Positions 4,437 through 64,000 of a stretch of DNA of 64,000 nt are shown here, piece after piece; position 1 is the stretch's first letter, and each line of letters opens with the position of its first letter. Below the pieces are notes generated by a model, which was not told the DNA's origin, did not search any database, and was given only the letters and a program-made list of their open reading frames with translations. The DNA is from a virus. The DNA is taken from the IMG/VR virus record IMGVR_UViG_3300008952_000003, positions 96,001 through 160,000 of that record. One strand, 5' to 3'. Made by a program: the position numbers and the translations under genes.

Positions 4437-6176
4437 ATGTCTATTTTAAATAAATTAACTGAAGGTATCGTTCGACGCGATCTTTCTAAAGAAGGTGCCG
4501 CTCTTCTCTCCAAGTGGGAAAAGACTGGTCTTCTTGAGGGGATTTCTAATGAGCGTGCCAAACACGGAATGGCTTCGTTGCTCGAAAACCAAGCTAAAGA
4601 ACTTCTTCGCGAAGCCTCCACCATGGCAGGTGCCGGCGGCGGTGACGTTGAGGGTTTCGCTTCCGTAGCTTTCCCCATCGTCCGCCGCGTCTTCGGTGGT
4701 TTGATCGCAAACGATCTCGTCTCGGTTCAGCCGATGAGCTTGCCTTCTGGCCTCATCTTCTTCCTTGACTTCACACTTCACCCTCGTGATGGTGCCCGCC
4801 TTGATTCTGTTATTGGCGAGTCCGTTTACGGTGGTGGTGTTGTTGCTTCACAAATCACTGGTGGCGTCTCGCTCGCCGGTAACGAAGCAGAGCAGAGCTT
4901 TTATGCTCTGAACAATGGTTACTCCAGCCCGACTGGATCAGTTAGACCACTCGTACTAACTGATCTTGGAGCCGCTTCAGGTACTGTTGGCTCCGGCATT
5001 CCAGGTGACTGGACAGGTACGGGCCCCGGAGGCGCAGCCCTTGCTTCCCTCGGTGACCGCCTCGTCCGCTTCGATCCGGATATCGCTTCCGGCACTGCAG
5101 CATGCGTTGTTTCTGTGCCCCTCGCGACATTCACCGCTGGCCAGTTGAATATCAAGGATTATGTCACAATCACCCTTGATGATAACGCAGGCACAGTCGA
5201 TGCAACCCAGGTCCGCAGATTGACCCGCGACGATCCCAATACTGCAGCAAATATTCTGCTTGTAACATCAGATGGTACAAATACTATAACACTCTCTGGT
5301 ACTATGACCACTGCACCCAAAGGAGCTTCTTTTGTCATTGACGATGCGTTCCAGGCAGCAGGTGCTATTGGTTCTGTCGAAGGTATCGACGTCTGGGGTC
5401 TTGAGAATGAAGAACGTATCCCAGAAATCGACATCAAAGTCGATTCTGTGGCTGTGACCGCAAAGACCAAAAAGCTCAAAGCTAAGTGGACGCCTGAATT
5501 GGCACAAGACTTGAACGCTTATCATAATCTCGATGCAGAGGTTGAGTTGACTAGTATTCTGTCTGAGCACATTGCTCTTGAGATTGACCAAGAAATCTTG
5601 GAAGACCTTATCAAAGGTGCTACTGCTGAAACCCTGTTTTGGTCGCGACTTCCTGGAAAATTCGTGAATCGTGTCACTGGCGGCGCTCTGGATTCCGTAA
5701 CTAACGGCTTCCCAGACTTCACCGGCAACGTTAGCGAATGGTATGAGACCCTCGTCGAGACCATCAATGACGTCTCCGCACAGATCCACAGAAAGACACT
5801 TCGTGGTGGTGCCAACTTCATCGTTGTTTCGCCTGAAGTTGCAAACCTCCTCGAATTCACTGCTGGATTCCGTGGATCCGTCACTCACGATGATGATCGT
5901 GGGCAAGTTGGTGCAGTCAGAGTTGGCTCCTTGAGCAAGAAGTTTGACGTATATGTTGATCCTTACTTCCCGAGAAACGTTGTTCTCGCGGGTCGCAAAG
6001 GCTCCTCATTCCTCGAAAGTGGATACGTTTACGCTCCGTATGTGCCGCTCCAGATGACTCCTACCATTTTTGGTACTGAGGATTTCGTGCCGCGCAAAGG
6101 CGTCATGACTCGTTATGCCAAGAAAATGGTTCGTCCTGATATGTATGGACTTGTCATTGTTCAAGATCTTGTATAA
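4437..6176 (+). CDS. gp23: Major capsid protein (T4 gp23 family)
   Basis: Motifs VSVQPMSLPSGLIFFLD, KTKKLKAKWTPELAQDLNAYHNLDAEVELTSILSEHIALEIDQE, GYVYAPYVP, PRKGVMTRY. Confidence 0.95.
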   Translation: MSILNKLTEGIVRRDLSKEGAALLSKWEKTGLLEGISNERAKHGMASLLENQAKELLREASTMAGAGGGDVEGFASVAFPIVRRVFGGLIANDLVSVQPMSLPSGLIFFLDFTLHPRDGARLDSVIGESVYGGGVVASQITGGVSLAGNEAEQSFYALNNGYSSPTGSVRPLVLTDLGAASGTVGSGIPGDWTGTGPGGAALASLGDRLVRFDPDIASGTAACVVSVPLATFTAGQLNIKDYVTITLDDNAGTVDATQVRRLTRDDPNTAANILLVTSDGTNTITLSGTMTTAPKGASFVIDDAFQAAGAIGSVEGIDVWGLENEERIPEIDIKVDSVAVTAKTKKLKAKWTPELAQDLNAYHNLDAEVELTSILSEHIALEIDQEILEDLIKGATAETLFWSRLPGKFVNRVTGGALDSVTNGFPDFTGNVSEWYETLVETINDVSAQIHRKTLRGGANFIVVSPEVANLLEFTAGFRGSVTHDDDRGQVGAVRVGSLSKKFDVYVDPYFPRNVVLAGRKGSSFLESGYVYAPYVPLQMTPTIFGTEDFVPRKGVMTRYAKKMVRPDMYGLVIVQDLV

Positions 6177-20583: not shown

Positions 20584-20600
20584 GAGGAGTACTTAGATAG

Positions 20601-22844
20601 ATGGCTGAAGAAGATGGTGATTTAGGTGATCTAGCTGCCACTGCAACAACAGTTGCTAACTTATTGCAACAGCTTGGCAAATTAAAGGAAGTTAAGGAAA
20701 CCACGACCGATATTCGCGCCCAAAGAGAGGCCATGTATGAGATAGCCAAGCTCGAATTGAAGTTGCGAGGAGAAGAAGTTTCTCTTGCGGCCCTCGCCCT
20801 AGATAATCAAAAAGAATCAGCAGAAGCCTGGGATCAGACATTCCAGAACATGCTCGGTGTGAGTGATAAGTGGAAATCTTCTAATCTCGGAAGACTTATG
20901 CAGCCAGGTGGACTCGATGGCTTTATTAACAGTATGAAAACTACTTTTACTTGGAGCAATCTTGCTGTTAGTTCACTGACGAAGACCGTGGAAATCGCCG
21001 GCGCTCTTGTCGCCATGAGTTGGTCATTGGCAAAAAGTCAAGATGAGGCTATGGTAGCTTTCAACAAGACTACTGGCGCCTCTAGACTTTATGGGGAAGA
21101 ACTATTGAGATTGGAGTCCTCCATGTATCACCACGGCGTGACCATGGAAGAGGCAGGAGCCGCCTATGCCTCAATGACAACTAACGTTAAGAATCTCAAG
21201 GGCATGTCAGAAATATCAAGAAAGGATCTTGCAGAAACAACAGTAGTACTTGCTCAGCTTGGCGTGAATGCCGACACCACAACTGCAAACTTCCAATTTC
21301 TAACAGCAGCTATGGGATATTCCGCCTCAGAAGCAAATAACTTATCAAGAGAAATGTTTGTACTTGCCCAAGAGATAGGCATGCCCCCAGAGGAGATGGC
21401 CCAAGGACTACAGGGCGCCGCCCCAGCCATGGCTAAATTCGGCTCTCAAAGTGGTGAGATGTATAAGAAGCTCGCCGTTAATGCTCGTGCTGCAAATATG
21501 GAAGTTCCGCAGTTGTTGGGAATTATTGAAAAATTTGATACTTTTGAGGGAGCAGCCCAATCGGTTGGGCAACTCAATGCAATCCTCGGAGGCCCATTCT
21601 TGAATTCTTTGGAAATGGTACAAACAACGGACCCAGTAGAGAGAATGAAACTCCTGAGTGACGCAGCAAATCAGGCTGGGACAAGCTTTGATGACATGAG
21701 TTATTACCAGAGAATAGCCCTGACTGAAGCAATGGGACTAAAAGACGTTTCAGAATTGGCCCTTGTTATGGCAGGTAGCTTCGACGAAGCAGTGCCAGCA
21801 ATGAAAAAAACGCAAGCCGAATTGGCAGAGATTGCAAAACAATCGAACGAGTTCAATACTTTGGCAGAAGAGTGGAGTCAGATACTGAGGATGTTGACAG
21901 TAGATCTTTTTGGCGGCGTGATACCAGCACTCAAGGGGTTCTTGCAGGGAATTCAAGACGCTAACCAAGCAATGGGAGGTCTCCTGATACCAGCACTAGC
22001 AGGCATGATATTGGGAACTGGCGCCGCAGCTACGATAGTTTTCGGGCTCGCTGCAGCAGTTCAAGCATCTCTTCCGTTCGTCCTGTTACTGGGCCCAGGC
22101 CTTGGTGCCACAGGTGCAGGAGGCACCGCCGCCGCAGCAGGAGTAGCTTCATTCTCCGGTGCCCTCGCGGCATCAACTCCAGTTATAATGTCGTCCGCAT
22201 CTGCTGTTGGGTCATTTACTCCAATAATCCTTGGCCTCGGCGCCGCAGCATTTATGGCTGGCGCCGGAATATACTTGGCCCTCTCTGGCGTGACTGGCTT
22301 GATGAGCGCGATAGACGCCGATACTGTGATGCAAAAGGTTCTTTCATTAAATAGCTTGTCTTTCGCGCTTGGTAGTTTGGTCCTTTCTTCTGCCCTCATG
22401 CCATTTGTCGCAGGCAATTTGTGGCAATTAATCGCCACCCTAAATGCTATCGATGGAGATAATCTTATTCCAGTGGCAGAAATGTTTAGCAGCATTAACT
22501 CGATTCTCGACAGGGACCTAGAAGGCTTAACGAAGGTAGAGCAAACTATTGCCAGGGTTGCTGCTTCCATAAATTCAATCGATAGCTCTGAAAAAGTATT
22601 TGCAGTGAAACAACTGATTGATTCTGTCAATGCTGCTACGGCCCGGCCCGCAGCAGCCGCAACAACGACGGCCCTCGCGGCCCAATCCGCGGCCCGGCCC
22701 GCAGCAGCCGCAACAACGACGGCCCTCGCGGCCCAATCCGCAGGTGCTCTAAATAGGCCGATTCAAATCTCACTAAATGTCGCAGGCAGAGAGTGGCTAA
22801 GCTTGCAGACAGATACTCTAGATAAGCTGTTAAACCAATATTGA
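20601..22844 (+). CDS. Tape measure protein
   Basis: 747 aa, alpha-helical, Ala/Gly-rich with a hydrophobic central/C-terminal stretch; canonical position after tube and chaperone genes. Confidence 0.8.
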   Translation: MAEEDGDLGDLAATATTVANLLQQLGKLKEVKETTTDIRAQREAMYEIAKLELKLRGEEVSLAALALDNQKESAEAWDQTFQNMLGVSDKWKSSNLGRLMQPGGLDGFINSMKTTFTWSNLAVSSLTKTVEIAGALVAMSWSLAKSQDEAMVAFNKTTGASRLYGEELLRLESSMYHHGVTMEEAGAAYASMTTNVKNLKGMSEISRKDLAETTVVLAQLGVNADTTTANFQFLTAAMGYSASEANNLSREMFVLAQEIGMPPEEMAQGLQGAAPAMAKFGSQSGEMYKKLAVNARAANMEVPQLLGIIEKFDTFEGAAQSVGQLNAILGGPFLNSLEMVQTTDPVERMKLLSDAANQAGTSFDDMSYYQRIALTEAMGLKDVSELALVMAGSFDEAVPAMKKTQAELAEIAKQSNEFNTLAEEWSQILRMLTVDLFGGVIPALKGFLQGIQDANQAMGGLLIPALAGMILGTGAAATIVFGLAAAVQASLPFVLLLGPGLGATGAGGTAAAAGVASFSGALAASTPVIMSSASAVGSFTPIILGLGAAAFMAGAGIYLALSGVTGLMSAIDADTVMQKVLSLNSLSFALGSLVLSSALMPFVAGNLWQLIATLNAIDGDNLIPVAEMFSSINSILDRDLEGLTKVEQTIARVAASINSIDSSEKVFAVKQLIDSVNAATARPAAAATTTALAAQSAARPAAAATTTALAAQSAGALNRPIQISLNVAGREWLSLQTDTLDKLLNQY
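22640..22741 (+). repeat. Exact 2 x 51-bp tandem duplication (ARPAAAATTTALAAQSA)
   Basis: Read directly; GC-rich and in frame near the TMP C-terminus. Confidence 0.95.
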
Positions 22845-57156: not shown

Positions 57157-57185
57157 TTGACATTTAGTTCAAATGTGTTTATAAT
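57157..57185 (+). promoter_or_regulatory. Sigma70-type promoter for groEL
   Basis: TTGACA-17-TATAAT. Confidence 0.85.
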
Positions 57186-57215: not shown

Positions 57216-58784
57216 TTGAAAAAACATTATGATTCTGGTTCCGAGATGAGTCAGCGTATCTTGGCTGGCGTCAATAAGCTAGCAGATAACGTGGCTTCCA
57301 CTCTGGGCCCAAGAGGCAGAAACGTCATATTGCAAGAAAAGAATAAGCGCCCCATTATCACAAAAGATGGCGTTACGGTCGCAGGCTTTGTTGACCTTGA
57401 AGATCCTATCGAGAATGTGGGCGCCCAGATAATCAAGCAGGCAGCAGAACAAACCAACTCTGATGCTGGTGACGGAACTACTACTGCCACGGTTCTTTCG
57501 AGAGCAATATTGAACGGGGCACAAAAGTATATATCATCTGGAGTACCTCCCATCGAGCTTCAGAGAGGAATAGAGAGGGCTGTACAGTCGATGGTGGAAA
57601 ACCTCGACGCCGCCAGCCGCCCGATTATGTCCGAGGATGATATTGCCCACGTGGCCACGATATCTGCAAATAACGATAAGCAAATTGGAAAACTCATAGC
57701 CCAGGCTGTATCTGCCGCTGGTAAGGACGGTGCGATAACTGTCGAAGAGGCCAGATCGTTTCAGACTAGTTTGGATTTGGTCGAGGGATTCAGGATGGAT
57801 GCTGGCTATGCAGCCAGTGCCTTCATTACTGATGAGCGCCGCCGCGCAGTCCTATACGAGGATCCAATGATCCTGGTTACAGATGAAAAAATTGATAATG
57901 TACATGATATTCTTCCCATTTTGGAACTCGCCGCACGCGAAGCTCGTCCTCTAATCTTTGTTGCTAGCGAGGTAGAGGGGCAAGCTCTCGCCGCGATGAT
58001 CGTTAATGCCCTCAAGGGCACACTAAAGGTCGCCGCGATAAAGGCCCCAAGATACGGAGAGGAACGCAAGAATATCTTAAGTGATCTGGCGCTCTCTACG
58101 GGAGCAACCTTGATCACACGGTCAAGCGGGAAAAGATTAAAAGATGCTAAACTAGTGGACTTTGGAAGTGCATCGAGAGTGGACATCACCAGGGCGCAAA
58201 CGACGATCGTCGGCGGAAATGGTGATCCAACTATGACTGAGATTAGAATTAATAGCCTTAAGGAAGAGTTGGTTGGTGAAGATAATCTGCATGAGTGCGA
58301 GAAGATACAGGACCGGATTTCACGTTTGGCCAGTGGTATCGCTATAATAAGAGTTGGTGCGTCTACGGAGATTGAAATGGTTGAGAAGAAGCACCGCATC
58401 GAAGATGCTCTTGAGGCAGTTCGCTCGGCCCAGATGGAGGGGATCGTAGAGGGTGGCGGCATCGCACTTCTCCGCGCCTCCACTGCGTTGAATGTGGAGG
58501 TCGAGAACCCGGACCAGGCGCTCGGTATTGAGATTATTAAGCAAGCTTCGCAGGCCCCGCTTCGGCAGATGGCAACTAATGCAGGCAGATCACCCGACAT
58601 CATTTGTCAACTTGTTTTGGAGTCGAACATCGGCGACGGCTACGATTTTATAACTGACTCCATCGTACATATGATTGATTCTGGAATAATAGATCCAGTG
58701 AGGGTTACTAAGAAAGCCCTTCAGAACGCGGCATCTGTATCTGGAACCCTGATAACAACAAATTGTGCTGTGATTGAGGAGTGA
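57216..58784 (+). CDS. groEL: Chaperonin GroEL
   Basis: STLGPRGRNV, ITKDGVTVA, GDGTTTATVL, EEA, KAPRYGEERK, RLASGIAIIRVG, GIIDPVRVT; no GGM tail. Confidence 0.95.
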   Translation: MKKHYDSGSEMSQRILAGVNKLADNVASTLGPRGRNVILQEKNKRPIITKDGVTVAGFVDLEDPIENVGAQIIKQAAEQTNSDAGDGTTTATVLSRAILNGAQKYISSGVPPIELQRGIERAVQSMVENLDAASRPIMSEDDIAHVATISANNDKQIGKLIAQAVSAAGKDGAITVEEARSFQTSLDLVEGFRMDAGYAASAFITDERRRAVLYEDPMILVTDEKIDNVHDILPILELAAREARPLIFVASEVEGQALAAMIVNALKGTLKVAAIKAPRYGEERKNILSDLALSTGATLITRSSGKRLKDAKLVDFGSASRVDITRAQTTIVGGNGDPTMTEIRINSLKEELVGEDNLHECEKIQDRISRLASGIAIIRVGASTEIEMVEKKHRIEDALEAVRSAQMEGIVEGGGIALLRASTALNVEVENPDQALGIEIIKQASQAPLRQMATNAGRSPDIICQLVLESNIGDGYDFITDSIVHMIDSGIIDPVRVTKKALQNAASVSGTLITTNCAVIEE

Positions 58785-59937: not shown

Positions 59938-60360
59938 ATGGAAATCCCTTGTAAGTTCGAGTCGGTCACTCAATGGCATGGCACCTCGTTGGGCGGCGAA
60001 ACAAAACTAGGTCGATATGACGGAACAAACCTGAATATCAAAGGCCTTGGGTATGAGAAGTGGGCCTTGGTTGCCAATATCTTAATGGACAAGCCAATCC
60101 AGGAATATTTAGAGCGTGGCTTGACCGAAAAACAAGTCGTCGATGGATGCTTGGAGTTCTTGAACAAGCCTCCCACAAAGCGAGCCCGCAAGCCAAAGTA
60201 TGGCAGGTTGGATTGTCGCTATTTTAAGGTCTTGAGTGACAAGATAACCATGTCACTGACGACAACAGAAAGAAATAGCAAATACTTCTGGGGTCGCGGC
60301 TCTAAGTCCCAAGAACCCAGGAAGATGTCTAAGCGCGGCCGACCAAGGAATCGCAAGTGA
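59938..60360 (+). CDS. Hypothetical basic protein
   Basis: 140 aa; operon packing. Confidence 0.55.
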   Translation: MEIPCKFESVTQWHGTSLGGETKLGRYDGTNLNIKGLGYEKWALVANILMDKPIQEYLERGLTEKQVVDGCLEFLNKPPTKRARKPKYGRLDCRYFKVLSDKITMSLTTTERNSKYFWGRGSKSQEPRKMSKRGRPRNRK

Positions 60361-60806
60361 GCAATAGTAAAATGGTGCGATCACACTTGAGGCAGCTTGA
60401 GTGGTATTTGCTAGACAGATATGACGTTCACGTATCATTCGAGAAGGACGGAACGGATGAGTATTGGTACGATCCAGAAAATCTTGAAGAAGACAAGGGG
60501 GTGATATCCATAAATTCATCAAAGACTCTGATGCACCAGCTTTATGTTTTACTCCACGAGTCGGGTCATGTAATTTTGAGAGCAGATCCGACCGCCTTCA
60601 AGGAGGAGTTCCCTGATTCCTGTAGGAACACGCTTCCGGGCCGTCTGGAGATATTGAGAGAGGAAGTTCTTGCTTGGGACAAGGCAGGGGAAGTTGCCGA
60701 GCGGTTGGATATAAAGATCAATCAATGCACCTGGAAGGAGAACTACCGGGATGCTTTAGAGAAGTATGTTAGATGGGTATTGGATGGAGATGATGATGAG
60801 AAATAG
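60357..60806 (+). CDS. HExxH metallopeptidase (ImmA/IrrE-like)
   Basis: LYVLLHESGH followed by EEVLAW..A. Confidence 0.6.
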   Translation: MSNSKMVRSHLRQLEWYLLDRYDVHVSFEKDGTDEYWYDPENLEEDKGVISINSSKTLMHQLYVLLHESGHVILRADPTAFKEEFPDSCRNTLPGRLEILREEVLAWDKAGEVAERLDIKINQCTWKENYRDALEKYVRWVLDGDDDEK

Positions 60807-63459
60807 ATTTGTTGAGTTGTTTATGTTGCTAGCCTTGGTGCTAAGCTCGGCCTGTAGCGAATATGAAATAGAGGTAATAGAGACAGAGGTTATCCCTGGT
60901 CCGCCACATTTCACAGACCCGCCAGATGGCAAGTGGTTACCCCCTCAGAAGGATTTTGAAATCCCAGATGGGCCCCTGGAGCTTGGAGACCCACTGCTCC
61001 CCGATATTGACCTGAGCTTCATTCAGTATGATTTTGGCACACACGAGTTATCGGACCCCCCAGTCTCAATCGGTCTTGAAATTAGGAACCTCGGGGACTA
61101 TCCCTTGCGGATAGGCAGTATCGATCAGACATCTATTTCAAAATCTTTCACTCTTTCATCGCTATTGAATAATGAGATACAACCTGGCGCCATGGAGGTT
61201 CTCGACATCACATATGATGGAGAAAAGCATGGCCCCGACGGTGATATGATAAAGATAGAATCAAACGATCCAGATGAGCCCTCCGTGGTTGTCCTGGTCG
61301 CAGCTAACGGTGCAACTCCTATTTTAGAGATTGATCCATTAGCGTTTGATTTTGGCCCAGTAGACCCCCTCAATTCTCCCGTCACGACATTCATAGACTT
61401 GACAAATGTCGGCGACGGCGTTTTGGAAATATCAAAGATAGAGGAGTTAAAGTCAAATTTGGACATCAGTATCACTTCCTATCCATCCACTAAACTATCC
61501 CCAGGCCAAGCCACATCCATGCAGGTGTCATATTATCCTATCGACTCTGGAAAGGATATTGAAAAGATAAAAATTACAAGCAATGATCCGAACGATCCTG
61601 TTCAAAAAATCACACTCAAAGGCGAATCAGCCGACCCAGATATCGATGCCCCCTCTCAGGTAGATTTTGGAACCCTGGAGTTGTCGAACTCCCTGGTAAA
61701 GACGGTCGATATTAAAAATGTCGGAGCAGGGATACTTCGTGTCACCGGAATTTCTTTTCCGCAAAGTACCGCAGCCTTCTCCATTATAAAGGGTTTTTCT
61801 GGTGATATCCTCCCAGGAAATTCCGAACCGATAGAGGTTCAATACTCACCAGATGATTATCTTTCTGATGCGTCCAGTTTGCAGATCTCTTCCAATGACC
61901 CGGCGACACCAGCGCATTCGATATCTCTGATTGGGTCTGTAGGCGTACCGGAAATAGAAATTGACCCATTCAGTATCGATTTTGGCAATGTAAACGTCTA
62001 TGGGGTTCCCCCGACAGAGAAAATTAAAATATCCAATGTCGGAACTGGAAATTTATCACTGGCACCAGTGTCGCTGAAGGGTGGCCTCCCATTTTCGTGG
62101 ACGCTAATAAGCAATTCTCTAGCCCCTGGAATGTCTGTTGACTTGGAGGTGACGTATAGTCCATCATCTTATTCTCCGTCCTCGGACGAATTGTTGATAG
62201 GCTCCAATGACCCCACCCAACCTCTAACAACTGTCCCTTTGATCGGCTGGGGCTCTGCTCCACAGTTGGAGATATATCCAGACCCGTATGATTTTGGATC
62301 CTCATATCTTGAGTGTGGCATTGAGAAAGTCATAGATTTAAAGAACGTGGGTGATGCAGACTTAGAGATCTCAAAGGTAGAATACTTCACGTCGTTCCCT
62401 AGCCACTTTACTATTGATTATGATTACGCAGCAAACGGCCAGTTTCCATGGGTTGTCTCTCCTGGGTCATTCTATTCTGTGTATATTGAGTATCTACCAA
62501 TGGCTGCAGCAACGACCGATTCTTCTTTCGTAAAAGTTCACTCCAACGATCCCCAGAATCCACAAATGCTCTCTTATCAATATGGGGTGGGAGATTATTA
62601 TTCTTCTGTGATGGACACCTACACCCAGGACACAGTTATGATGTCTGATATTCTATTTATAATAGATAATTCCTGTTCTATGTCAACGTGGCAGACACAT
62701 GTGGCTACAAATTTTGATTCTTTTATAACTGTGTTTAAAAATTCTGGAGTTGATTATCATATAGCCATCATAACTACTGATGATCCCTCTTTCACAGGGC
62801 CCATCATCGACAACTCCACGATTGATCCGATCGCAGAGTTTAAAACCCAGGCACAAGTGGGGACATATGGCTCCGGTCACGAGCGCGGCCTCGATATGGC
62901 TTATGGCGCCTTACAACCCGGAGGTGACGCCGCACCCGGCTCTTCTTTCGAACGCACCGATGCGAAGATGTCGCTTATCTTTGTTTCCGATGAGCCGGAT
63001 TACTCTTATGAACTTTCCACGCCCCTTGATTATTCATCCTATTTTACAGGAGTAAAGCTCAACTCTTCGAAGATCGTGTCCCATGCTGTGAGTGGGGACT
63101 GTCCAAGCGGCTGCTCGATGCCCTATACTTCTTCGACTGGGTACACGTACAATAAATATGCATCCTGTAATTACGATTATATTGATGTTGTCAGTGATAT
63201 GGGGGGCACACAACTATCATTGTGTGATACAGACTGGGGCCTGAAGATGGAGACGTTGGCAAAAGACTCCATCATTAAATCCTCTTTTGAATTATCGGAT
63301 ATCCCTATTGCGACCACTATTGAGGTATTGGTCGACGGCTCACTCACGGGAAACTGGACATACGACCCGCTCATCAACAGCGTCATATTTGATCCAGGAA
63401 GTATTCCAGTTGCAGGAAGCATCATTGATATTAGTTACAATATTTTAGGAGGTTGTTGA
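60796..63459 (+). CDS. Lipoprotein with five tandem Ig-like (choice-of-anchor D/Hydin-type) domains and a C-terminal VWA domain
   Basis: Lipobox SSAC; five xSNDP-ending repeats with F(D/G)FG and I.N.G...L; MIDAS DNSCSM, TTD, SDEPD. Start probably ATG 60796. Confidence 0.75.
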   Translation: MRNRFVELFMLLALVLSSACSEYEIEVIETEVIPGPPHFTDPPDGKWLPPQKDFEIPDGPLELGDPLLPDIDLSFIQYDFGTHELSDPPVSIGLEIRNLGDYPLRIGSIDQTSISKSFTLSSLLNNEIQPGAMEVLDITYDGEKHGPDGDMIKIESNDPDEPSVVVLVAANGATPILEIDPLAFDFGPVDPLNSPVTTFIDLTNVGDGVLEISKIEELKSNLDISITSYPSTKLSPGQATSMQVSYYPIDSGKDIEKIKITSNDPNDPVQKITLKGESADPDIDAPSQVDFGTLELSNSLVKTVDIKNVGAGILRVTGISFPQSTAAFSIIKGFSGDILPGNSEPIEVQYSPDDYLSDASSLQISSNDPATPAHSISLIGSVGVPEIEIDPFSIDFGNVNVYGVPPTEKIKISNVGTGNLSLAPVSLKGGLPFSWTLISNSLAPGMSVDLEVTYSPSSYSPSSDELLIGSNDPTQPLTTVPLIGWGSAPQLEIYPDPYDFGSSYLECGIEKVIDLKNVGDADLEISKVEYFTSFPSHFTIDYDYAANGQFPWVVSPGSFYSVYIEYLPMAAATTDSSFVKVHSNDPQNPQMLSYQYGVGDYYSSVMDTYTQDTVMMSDILFIIDNSCSMSTWQTHVATNFDSFITVFKNSGVDYHIAIITTDDPSFTGPIIDNSTIDPIAEFKTQAQVGTYGSGHERGLDMAYGALQPGGDAAPGSSFERTDAKMSLIFVSDEPDYSYELSTPLDYSSYFTGVKLNSSKIVSHAVSGDCPSGCSMPYTSSTGYTYNKYASCNYDYIDVVSDMGGTQLSLCDTDWGLKMETLAKDSIIKSSFELSDIPIATTIEVLVDGSLTGNWTYDPLINSVIFDPGSIPVAGSIIDISYNILGGC

Positions 63460-63461
63460 TA

Positions 63462-63797
63462 ATGGAGAAAATAGAAAAACCATGGGGATTTGAAATAATC
63501 TGGGCCAAGACTGATAGTTATGTTGGAAAATTGCTACACATAACTTCCGGCTCACGACTGTCCAGGCAGTACCATGTCGAGAAGGAAGAGACGATTTACG
63601 TTTTGACGGGAGTTTTGTATAATTACGATAGAGACGGAAACGTCCAAAGAATACTTCCAGGGGAATCGTTTCACGTTCGCCCACGACAAATTCATAGATT
63701 CGCCGCAATGGAAGAATCGAACGTAGAGTTGATTGAGGTCAGCACGAATCATCTCGATGATGTGGTCCGACTCGCCGATGATTACAAGAGGGTCTAG
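63462..63797 (+). CDS. Cupin-domain protein (mannose-6-phosphate isomerase C-terminal-like)
   Basis: EKPWG, LSRQYH..K.ET.YVL.G, HRF, EVST; AGGAGG SD. Confidence 0.8.
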   Translation: MEKIEKPWGFEIIWAKTDSYVGKLLHITSGSRLSRQYHVEKEETIYVLTGVLYNYDRDGNVQRILPGESFHVRPRQIHRFAAMEESNVELIEVSTNHLDDVVRLADDYKRV

Positions 63798-64000
63798 TGA
63801 CCTATAAGCTTCTGTTTGCGTGTCTATTGATCCTAATGGGTCACACAGTATCTTGGTATGCGACATACTCACAATTCATATGGGATTGGTGCAAGAATAA
63901 TGTGATTTTGCTGCCATTGATTTTCTCAATTCCAACAGGGTACTTGTTCACTTATGGTATGAGGTTCGCAGTCCAGGAGATGGGCGAAGCCTGGGGCCCC
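63797..64000 (+). CDS. Membrane protein, 3'-truncated by window edge
   Basis: GTG overlapping the upstream TAG; MTYKLLFACLLILMGHTVSWY...ILLPLIFSIPTGYLF, open to the end. Confidence 0.55.
   Translation, partial: MTYKLLFACLLILMGHTVSWYATYSQFIWDWCKNNVILLPLIFSIPTGYLFTYGMRFAVQEMGEAWGP

Follow-up and report, generated by a model that had tools for sequence, protein, structure and literature searches.

A lipid-anchored, integrin-like adhesin encoded by a large marine phage and its relatives in Myxococcota and Bdellovibrionota

The IMG/VR virus record IMGVR_UViG_3300008952_000003 is 193,157 bp long, and the stretch analyzed here, called the window, comprises its bases 96001-160000, or 64,000 nucleotides (nt); coordinates with the prefix G000 refer to the whole phage record. 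Near its end the window holds a gene whose product is, with near certainty, an integrin-like adhesin that the phage makes and that is exported and anchored by a lipid. [quoted passage not shown] Sequence comparisons indicate that the gene family is old and under selection in a large-phage clade of marine origin, and that the protein's cellular relatives come almost entirely from Myxococcota or Bdellovibrionota.

A phage-encoded lipoprotein with an Ig-like stalk and an integrin-like head

The gene and the parts of its product are as follows.

60796..63459, plus strand: adhesin gene including the stop codon, encoding an 887-amino-acid (aa) lipoprotein in which a MIDAS VWA head follows five Ig domains; the open reading frame (ORF) is open from 60766
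60796..60855, plus strand: lipoprotein signal peptide, its last residue being the lipobox Cys20 (codon 60853-60855); it reads MRNRFVELFMLLALVLSSAC and has a helix at residues 4-15 in the model
60856..60990, plus strand: proline-rich, predicted-disordered tether, residues 21-65, opening with a conserved C-x-E-Y; predicted local distance difference test score (pLDDT) <50 over residues 7-65
60991..62583, plus strand: stalk of five tandem choice-of-anchor-D/HYDIN-VesB-type Ig-like domains, residues 66-596, from Pfam, NCBIfam, the repeat alignment and the model
62584..63456, plus strand: VWA (integrin I-like) head with a small beta-sandwich, residues 597-887, from the model, Foldseek, VIA and weak NF052240 and NF033765 matches
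62665..62679, plus strand: MIDAS DxSxS motif, D624-N-S626-C-S628
62773-62781 and 62989-62994, plus strand: other metal-site residues (T660, T661 and D662; D732 and E733)

With a GGAG 6 nt upstream, the ATG at 60796 is the best start, and the start proposed in a first-pass annotation made from the sequence alone therefore stands. In the signal, a positive n-region and a hydrophobic core precede a lipobox whose last residue is Cys, the sequence pattern of a lipoprotein signal peptidase II (SPII) substrate. Every one of 21 aligned full-length homologues (alignment A1) has Cys20 and nearly every one has E22, and a lipobox was seen in nearly all of about 160 homologues from phage and cell loci, which bears out the lipobox named in that annotation. 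Directly after the lipobox Cys (60856-60864), a C-[SQNT]-[DE]-[YH] motif is common to the phage clade and a marine Myxococcota-like clade (homologues L005-L164) and is missing from the Myxococcus and Bdellovibrio homologues; this motif might serve in sorting or in export to the surface.

The stalk units span residues 66-173, 174-280, 281-384, 385-487 and 488-596, end in IESNDP, ITSNDP, ISSNDP, IGSNDP and VHSNDP, respectively, and are pairwise 22-36% identical. Pfam family PF22544 (HYDIN/VesB/CFA65-like Ig) matched five stretches with an expectation value (E) of 1.4e-39 and 134.7 bits against a cut-off of 25.5, and the NCBIfam choice-of-anchor D model NF012200 gave 153 bits against a cut-off of 45 (E 2.8e-45). 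In a full-length AlphaFold model (pLDDT 84), a signal helix is followed by disorder as far as residue 65, then by five domains that are all-beta (pLDDT ~85-94) and a mixed alpha/beta head. Both family searches and the model thus agree with the five Ig-like repeats, and their SNDP endings, that had been read from the translation. Among PHROGs families, the protein matched phrog_18474 over the Ig region, plus a nonsignificant phrog_7371, and nothing else.

Since Pfam VWA gave no match to the adhesin, we modeled residues 590-887 separately with 30 homologues, obtaining a pLDDT of 90.7 and a predicted template modeling score (pTM) of 0.84. The best Foldseek matches in PDB were the integrin beta3 and beta1 headpieces (E ~2e-7), a VWA protein of bacterial origin (4fx5) and the pilus-tip adhesins RrgA and SpaC. 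VIA-align placed ~180 residues of the head on the integrin alpha1, alpha2 and alphaM I domains at ~3 A with Z of 16-17, and it also found the VWA domains of TFIIH p44 and collagen VI. The predicted head structure therefore has the Rossmann-like VWA fold. PDB sequence searches gave integrin matches only below threshold (E 0.07-0.8), and the only matches in BFVD were viral VWA proteins of a generic kind, 8-17% identical to the head.

The metal site is conserved throughout: D624, S626, S628, T660/T661/D662, E696 and D732/E733 are invariant both in alignment A1 and in 66 of 66 long-form phage homologues. A sub-threshold PDB profile match aligns the MIDAS motif and D732 with the DGSGS and TDG metal ligands of integrin alpha-M, the counterparts there of DxSxS and D732 being, as we take them, D140-S144 and D242. 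Which residue serves as the distal metal ligand was assigned by inference. The proposal of a VWA domain with an intact MIDAS is thus upheld by the head model, the integrin matches in Foldseek and VIA, and the invariant residues, and, of the checks suggested for the repeats and the VWA domain, AlphaFold recovered the all-beta Ig domains and AlphaFold with Foldseek the integrin-like head. Describing the domain as Cys-rich was an overstatement, because the head has only six Cys in 291 residues.

An old gene family in a clade of large phages

CheckV rates the 193,157-bp record as 100% complete. PHROGs matches in the phage include a T4-type major head protein, a tail sheath, a ribonucleotide reductase, a DNA polymerase and a DnaB helicase, and the best deposited relatives of its capsid are Microcystis phage Mel-JY01 (37%), Rhodothermus phage RM378 and uncultured huge phages. 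Because of the T4-type capsid and sheath, this set of PHROGs matches and the relatives of the capsid, we classify the phage, from its gene content, as a lytic-type, distant-T4 myophage, and the adhesin can be called phage encoded, as originally claimed. The guanine-plus-cytosine (GC) content of the phage is 41.7%, and that of the adhesin gene matches it.

The gene is far from unique to this record. Scanning IMG/VR identified at least 80 contigs with the head, many of them 100-316 kb long, whose heads are 28-84% identical. When five of the large records were tested, two had direct terminal repeats, four were at least 94% complete, and three carried capsid genes 50-64% identical to that of the phage described here. 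The common phage form is ~520-560 aa long with two Ig domains; the subclade of this phage has five and some relatives have six, and counts of 0, 1, 2, 5 or 6 occur across phages.

In head trees, the long-form phage proteins make up one supported clade that also holds the high-GC cellular sequences L005 and L068 and the low-GC sequence L006, labeled as part of a metagenome-assembled genome (MAG). Stalk-less phage paralogues sit on a long branch of their own, and three phage sequences are nested among named Myxococcota. FastTree makes a marine MAG clade sister to the phage clade with a support of 96; because IQ-TREE does not resolve this sister grouping, we claim no donor. Compared with a 71%-identical homologue, the proportion of synonymous differences (pS) is 0.85 (saturated), and the proportion of nonsynonymous differences (pN) is 0.18 overall and 0.09 in the head, values that point to strong purifying selection on the adhesin gene. 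Recent capture from a host was considered and rejected, given the 80 or more phage contigs, the deep phage clade, the phage-like GC content and the saturated synonymous sites.

Relatives in cells

A cellular scan covering one genome per species returned 290 relatives of the head. The best 80 of these 290 are overwhelmingly from Myxococcota (Myxococcus, Archangium, Corallococcus, Pyxidicoccus and Bradymonadia), Bdellovibrionota or entries labeled 'Deltaproteobacteria', and the ESM Atlas clusters matching the head are from Uroviricota, Myxococcota and Bdellovibrionota. The first-pass annotation had called this kind of protein typical of Myxococcota and Bdellovibrionota surfaces and would have given up its reading had homologues been spread over unrelated hosts; the cellular relatives are instead concentrated in those two groups. 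Myxococcaceae encode ~990-aa proteins with the same layout of lipobox, six Ig domains and MIDAS.

The top cellular matches, at 34-42% identity, come from MAGs of 4.5-10 Mb that carry odd labels, such as 'Rickettsiales', and 7-43 paralogues each; their loci have 66-72% GC, and the MAGs labeled 'uncultured Rickettsiales' (L007-L017; G003-G030) have ~70%. One 'Rickettsiales' MAG has an RpoB 68-76% identical to those of named Myxococcota, Polyangia and Haliangium, and on such sequence grounds we read these MAGs as an uncultured marine Myxococcota-like lineage. The labels 'Rickettsiales', 'Klebsiella' and 'Methylococcaceae TMED69' on the best-matching MAGs were rejected. The 7-43 MIDAS lipoprotein paralogues per marine MAG genome amount to a large, uncharacterized adhesin expansion. 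The 'Methylococcaceae bacterium TMED69' sequence, L006 (NHDW01000006.1), is a 305-kb contig whose adhesin has an N terminus nearly identical to those of phage loci L129 and L133; because its GC content is 39% and it carries other genes of this phage type, it is probably a jumbo phage genome misbinned into a MAG.

A predicted early cassette with an exported protease

All genes lie on the plus strand, and those around the adhesin form a cassette that runs past the end of the window.

57157..57185, plus strand: sigma-70-type promoter that opens the cassette, TTGACA-17-TATAAT, perfect in agreeing with the consensus at 12 of 12 positions
57216..58784, plus strand: phage GroEL (Cpn60), the first cassette gene (Pfam PF00118, E 1.3e-63)
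60357..60806, plus strand: M78/IrrE-like HExxH peptidase-domain protein (Pfam PF06114, E 7e-7; HESGH in the translation)
63453..63797, plus strand: cupin/mannose-6-phosphate-isomerase-type gene, overlapping the adhesin stop (PF07883, E 3.6e-9; PF01050, E 7e-9)
63797..64000, continuing past the window to ~64144 in window numbering, plus strand: small multi-pass membrane protein
G000:160640-161461 (L004:534-1355), past the window end: exported Trypsin_2 protease lipoprotein, 273 aa (Pfam, E 2e-15)
G000:161451-162413 (L004:1345-2307), past the window end: stalk-less MIDAS/VWA lipoprotein paralogue, 320 aa
G000:162424-162452 (L004:2318-2346), past the window: second perfect sigma-70 promoter, with an extended -10 TG, after the stop of the second MIDAS gene

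Which of these neighbors travel with the adhesin was counted within 8 kb of it in 80 phage loci and 80 cell loci. A trypsin-like protease is present at 43 of the phage loci and none of the cell loci; an N-terminal signal peptide or anchor in the membrane is present in 42 of these 43 proteases, which retain the GxSG motif. The stalk-less MIDAS lipoprotein paralogue, for which Pfam VWA falls just under its cut-off, is frequently next to the adhesin in phages. These linkages suggest that the adhesin is tied to a phage-specific exported protease. GroEL recurs at 16 of the 80 phage loci. The M78-like gene, whose 3' end overlaps the adhesin start by 11 nt, is found beside the adhesin at just 3 of them and is for that reason probably unconnected to the lipoprotein module.

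Cassette genes abut or overlap between the two perfect promoters, with no convincing terminator among them, and the T4 late-promoter motif TATAAATA does not occur on the plus strand within 6 kb of the adhesin gene. From the bracketing promoters, the abutting genes and the lack of a terminator or a nearby late motif, we infer that the host polymerase transcribes the cassette early, as a unit of 9.2 kb. A eukaryotic-type phosphomannomutase gene at L004:2675-3400 and the cupin gene flank the lipoprotein genes.

Credible lipoprotein ORFs number four in the 193-kb genome, and three of them are in the cassette. The fourth, and the only one outside it, encodes 156 aa at G000:182155-182625 and could be a spanin-type lysis protein. 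A 507-aa protein encoded at G000:12990-14513 (L003:808-2331) lacks a signal peptide; its unannotated N-terminal part, which may, by impression, be lectin/LamG-like, is followed by two choice-of-anchor-D-type Ig domains, and the protein may be a virion decoration or fiber protein. The genome also carries the following RNA genes.

G000:4493-4569, 5509-5584, 20597-20834 and 166303-166378: six transfer RNAs (tRNAs), of which Thr-TGT, Ala-TGC, Arg-TCT and Ile-TAT read A-ending codons
G000:188256-188595: transfer-messenger RNA (tmRNA) with the tag ANNNNHFQAVALAA

Possible roles during infection

The first-pass annotation listed adhesion, motility, kin contact and receptor masking as what the protein might do, and all four are hypotheses here too. 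Phages are known to encode lipoproteins that block superinfection (PMC9586334, PMC3952083). The role we favor, tentatively and at a probability of about 0.42, is analogous to that of Llp, Cor and Ltp: the adhesin would act with the exported protease and the short paralogue to alter the infected-cell surface, so that the phage receptor is masked or removed and further phages are excluded. In this scheme, the sigma-70 RNA polymerase of the host would transcribe the early cassette from GroEL through the second MIDAS lipoprotein, yielding GroEL, the products of small ORFs, the M78-like protein, the adhesin, the cupin, the membrane protein, the trypsin-like protease and the stalk-less lipoprotein. 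Host machinery would presumably export the adhesin precursor and lipidate Cys20, and the mature protein would come to rest in the outer membrane, probably facing outward, by analogy with CglB and Bd0875. The tether of ~45 aa and the five Ig domains would hold the head ~20 nm off the membrane, where the MIDAS metal ion could clamp an acidic residue of the ligand. Binding and alteration of that surface component would then protect progeny from debris as well as prevent superinfection. The scaffold of the proposed exclusion factor is the adhesin type typical of Myxococcota and Bdellovibrionota.

Several points weigh against this proposal. A stalk of ~20 nm would suit an adhesin that reaches outward better than a plug for a receptor, and the known exclusion lipoproteins, Llp, Cor and Ltp among them, are small proteins not known to be related to it in sequence or to carry VWA or Ig domains. 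The early timing is read from promoter consensus alone, distant relatives are the grounds for assuming outer membrane sorting and surface exposure, and the link to the protease is a genomic one.

One alternative is that the adhesin remodels adhesion or behavior, either making the infected cell stick to particles, prey or neighbors or competing with host paralogues to change gliding and contact, to the benefit of phage production or spread. Characterized relatives are indeed adhesins in gliding and prey contact (PMC9946355, PMC11003981), the variation from 0 to 1, 2, 5 or 6 Ig domains is what would be expected of heads reaching past surface layers, and the 7-43 paralogues per genome in the nearest cellular lineage suggest surface adhesin repertoires. 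Any gain that a lytic T4-like phage would draw from stickiness is hypothetical, however, and the co-conserved exported protease is left unexplained. Gliding-machine genes were not found in the phage, although the negative for CglF/GltF (NF033764) is a weak one because control genomes gave no match either. We regard this alternative as credible but on the unlikely side. A bolder reading, which we hold to be speculative and unlikely, sees a clade of large marine T4-like phages with a conserved early 'envelope take-over module' of long-stalk and stalk-less MIDAS lipoproteins and an exported serine protease, derived from adhesins of uncultured marine Myxococcota and serving to seize or disable the adhesion and gliding machinery of the host; if true, these phages would be viruses of marine myxobacteria.

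Other placements of the protein appear much less probable. Most lipoproteins are not surface exposed, the partner protease likewise has an export signal, and the length of the stalk, at our own estimate of ~4 nm per Ig domain, is close to the width of the Gram-negative periplasm, so the adhesin might stay in the periplasm and span toward the other membrane or the wall, organizing or stabilizing the envelope or readying it for lysis. We judge such a bridge quite improbable, since its studied relatives are surface exposed (PMC9946355, PMC11003981), 0-6 Ig domains among phages fit a fixed spacing poorly, and the gene lies outside any recognizable lysis cassette. Still further from the evidence is a virion component, a decoration of the capsid or tail or a receptor-binding adhesin whose 'signal peptide' is incidental. 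Ig-like domains are common virion decorations, the 507-aa protein with LamG-like and two Ig domains carries the same Ig type without a signal peptide, and some phage VWA proteins are labeled 'virion structural proteins', but phage and cell homologues share an invariant lipobox Cys, and the gene sits in a cassette with sigma-70 promoters, distant from the structural genes. A protein exported through the inner membrane would also be unavailable to the cytoplasmic assembly of tailed phages, and we consider this reading very improbable. The same slight weight goes to a neutral passenger, acquired from a Myxococcota-like cell and without a role in infection: cellular proteins of the same architecture do exist, for instance a 991-aa ORF in Myxococcus sp. 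Y35, yet the spread over at least 80 phage contigs, the depth of the phage clade, the match in GC, the strong purifying selection and the phage-specific gene linkage all speak against it. Surface alteration with exclusion of superinfection thus remains the role we would put forward, and the phage family as a whole suggests, from its genes, a re-tooling of the envelope of the infected cell.

Host of the phage

The first-pass annotation saw in the adhesin a hint of a deltaproteobacterial-type host, and this part of it is plausible but weak. In its favor, relatives of the adhesin are almost all from Myxococcota or Bdellovibrionota, and the nearest of them, in marine Myxococcota-like MAGs, hint by sequence at such a host. 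The tRNAs that read A-ending codons resemble those of low-GC phages with higher-GC hosts, a further hint in the same direction. Against it stands a gap of 25-30 points between the 41.7% GC of the phage and the 66-72% of the nearest cellular lineage, CglF/GltF was not found in the phage (the weak negative given above), and no direct link between this phage and a host was found. No cultured phage supplies a host either, because tblastn of the whole adhesin against 50,697 deposited phage genomes (INPHARED) returned no match. As a second host marker, the PrkA of the phage does not discriminate, since it is 34-39% identical to its counterparts in Myxococcota-like MAGs, Myxococcus and Bdellovibrionota alike. 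The family raises the question of which uncultured marine host, possibly a large-genome Myxococcota, these abundant jumbo phages use, and also that of how large lytic phages re-engineer the envelope of their hosts and what the heads bind.

Comparison with known systems

The adhesin scores far below the curated equivalog cut-offs of two NCBIfam models, with 42-46 bits against 700 for NF052240 (Bd0875), a match limited to the MIDAS region of the head, and 30-35 against 400 for NF033765 (CglD). All 30 members of the head alignment match these models equally weakly, as do the Bdellovibrio and Myxococcus homologues that we fetched, and because scores are below cut-off in all of them, the adhesin belongs by sequence to a separate, unnamed MIDAS lipoprotein family that is distant kin of Bd0875 and CglD. 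An NCBIfam scan of the adhesin at E up to 1 gave no CglB-specific match, and orthology to CglB, CglD or Bd0875 was rejected on these results.

The likeness is closest to the choice-of-anchor D and MIDAS lipoproteins of Myxococcota, which share the lipobox, 2-6 Ig domains, a MIDAS VWA head and a C-terminal beta-sandwich with the phage protein and have heads 30-42% identical to it. Examples are the 991-aa ORF of Myxococcus sp. Y35 (NZ_CP143624.1, L032) and the two-Ig forms in marine MAGs L007-L017. Unlike the phage gene, these cellular genes have 66-72% GC and no trypsin-like protease alongside, and in the marine MAG lineage each genome has 7-43 of them.

CglD reportedly carries Cys/Asp calcium-binding repeats where the phage protein has its Ig stalk, and its model matches the head family only weakly over the MIDAS region (30-49 bits against a cut-off of 400). 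Like the phage protein, CglD of Myxococcus xanthus (NF033765), a beta-integrin-like gliding protein, is a lipoprotein with an integrin-like VWA domain (bioRxiv 10.1101/2023.10.19.562135). Bd0875 of Bdellovibrio bacteriovorus (NF052240) is also a lipoprotein with a MIDAS VWA domain set within a small beta domain, which in its case is built from N- and C-terminal segments (PMC11003981). It differs from the phage protein in lacking an Ig stalk and in being a predator invasion adhesin, and matches to its family reach just 42-65 bits against 700.

CglB of M. xanthus has its lipobox Cys at residue 20, as does the phage protein, and a VWA domain with DxSxS...T...D; both it and the phage head match the integrin CR3 I domain structurally, 1JLM being among the matches of the head (PMC9946355). 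It departs from the phage protein in having 16 Cys beyond the lipobox Cys, a beta-jellyroll and no Ig stalk and in co-occurring with the Agl-Glt machinery (PMC9946355). Since Bd0875 and CglB are surface-exposed as lipoproteins and need their MIDAS residues for function (PMC11003981, PMC9946355), they offer a functional analogy to the phage protein, and an analogy only. With integrin alpha-I and beta-I domains, RrgA and SpaC, the phage head agrees in fold and MIDAS geometry at just 10-15% identity, a likeness at the level of the fold only.

Among phage proteins, Llp (T5), Cor and Ltp are likewise phage-encoded lipoproteins acting in the host envelope (PMC9586334, PMC3952083), a likeness that we treat as functional analogy. 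Our literature search found no paper on phage-encoded MIDAS or VWA lipoproteins. Integrin-like MIDAS lipoproteins were previously known as adhesins of predatory bacteria, with CglB and CglD serving gliding and Bd0875 prey invasion; a related family now emerges as a conserved gene of large marine phages, probably expressed early, under strong purifying selection and tied by genomic linkage to a phage-specific exported protease.

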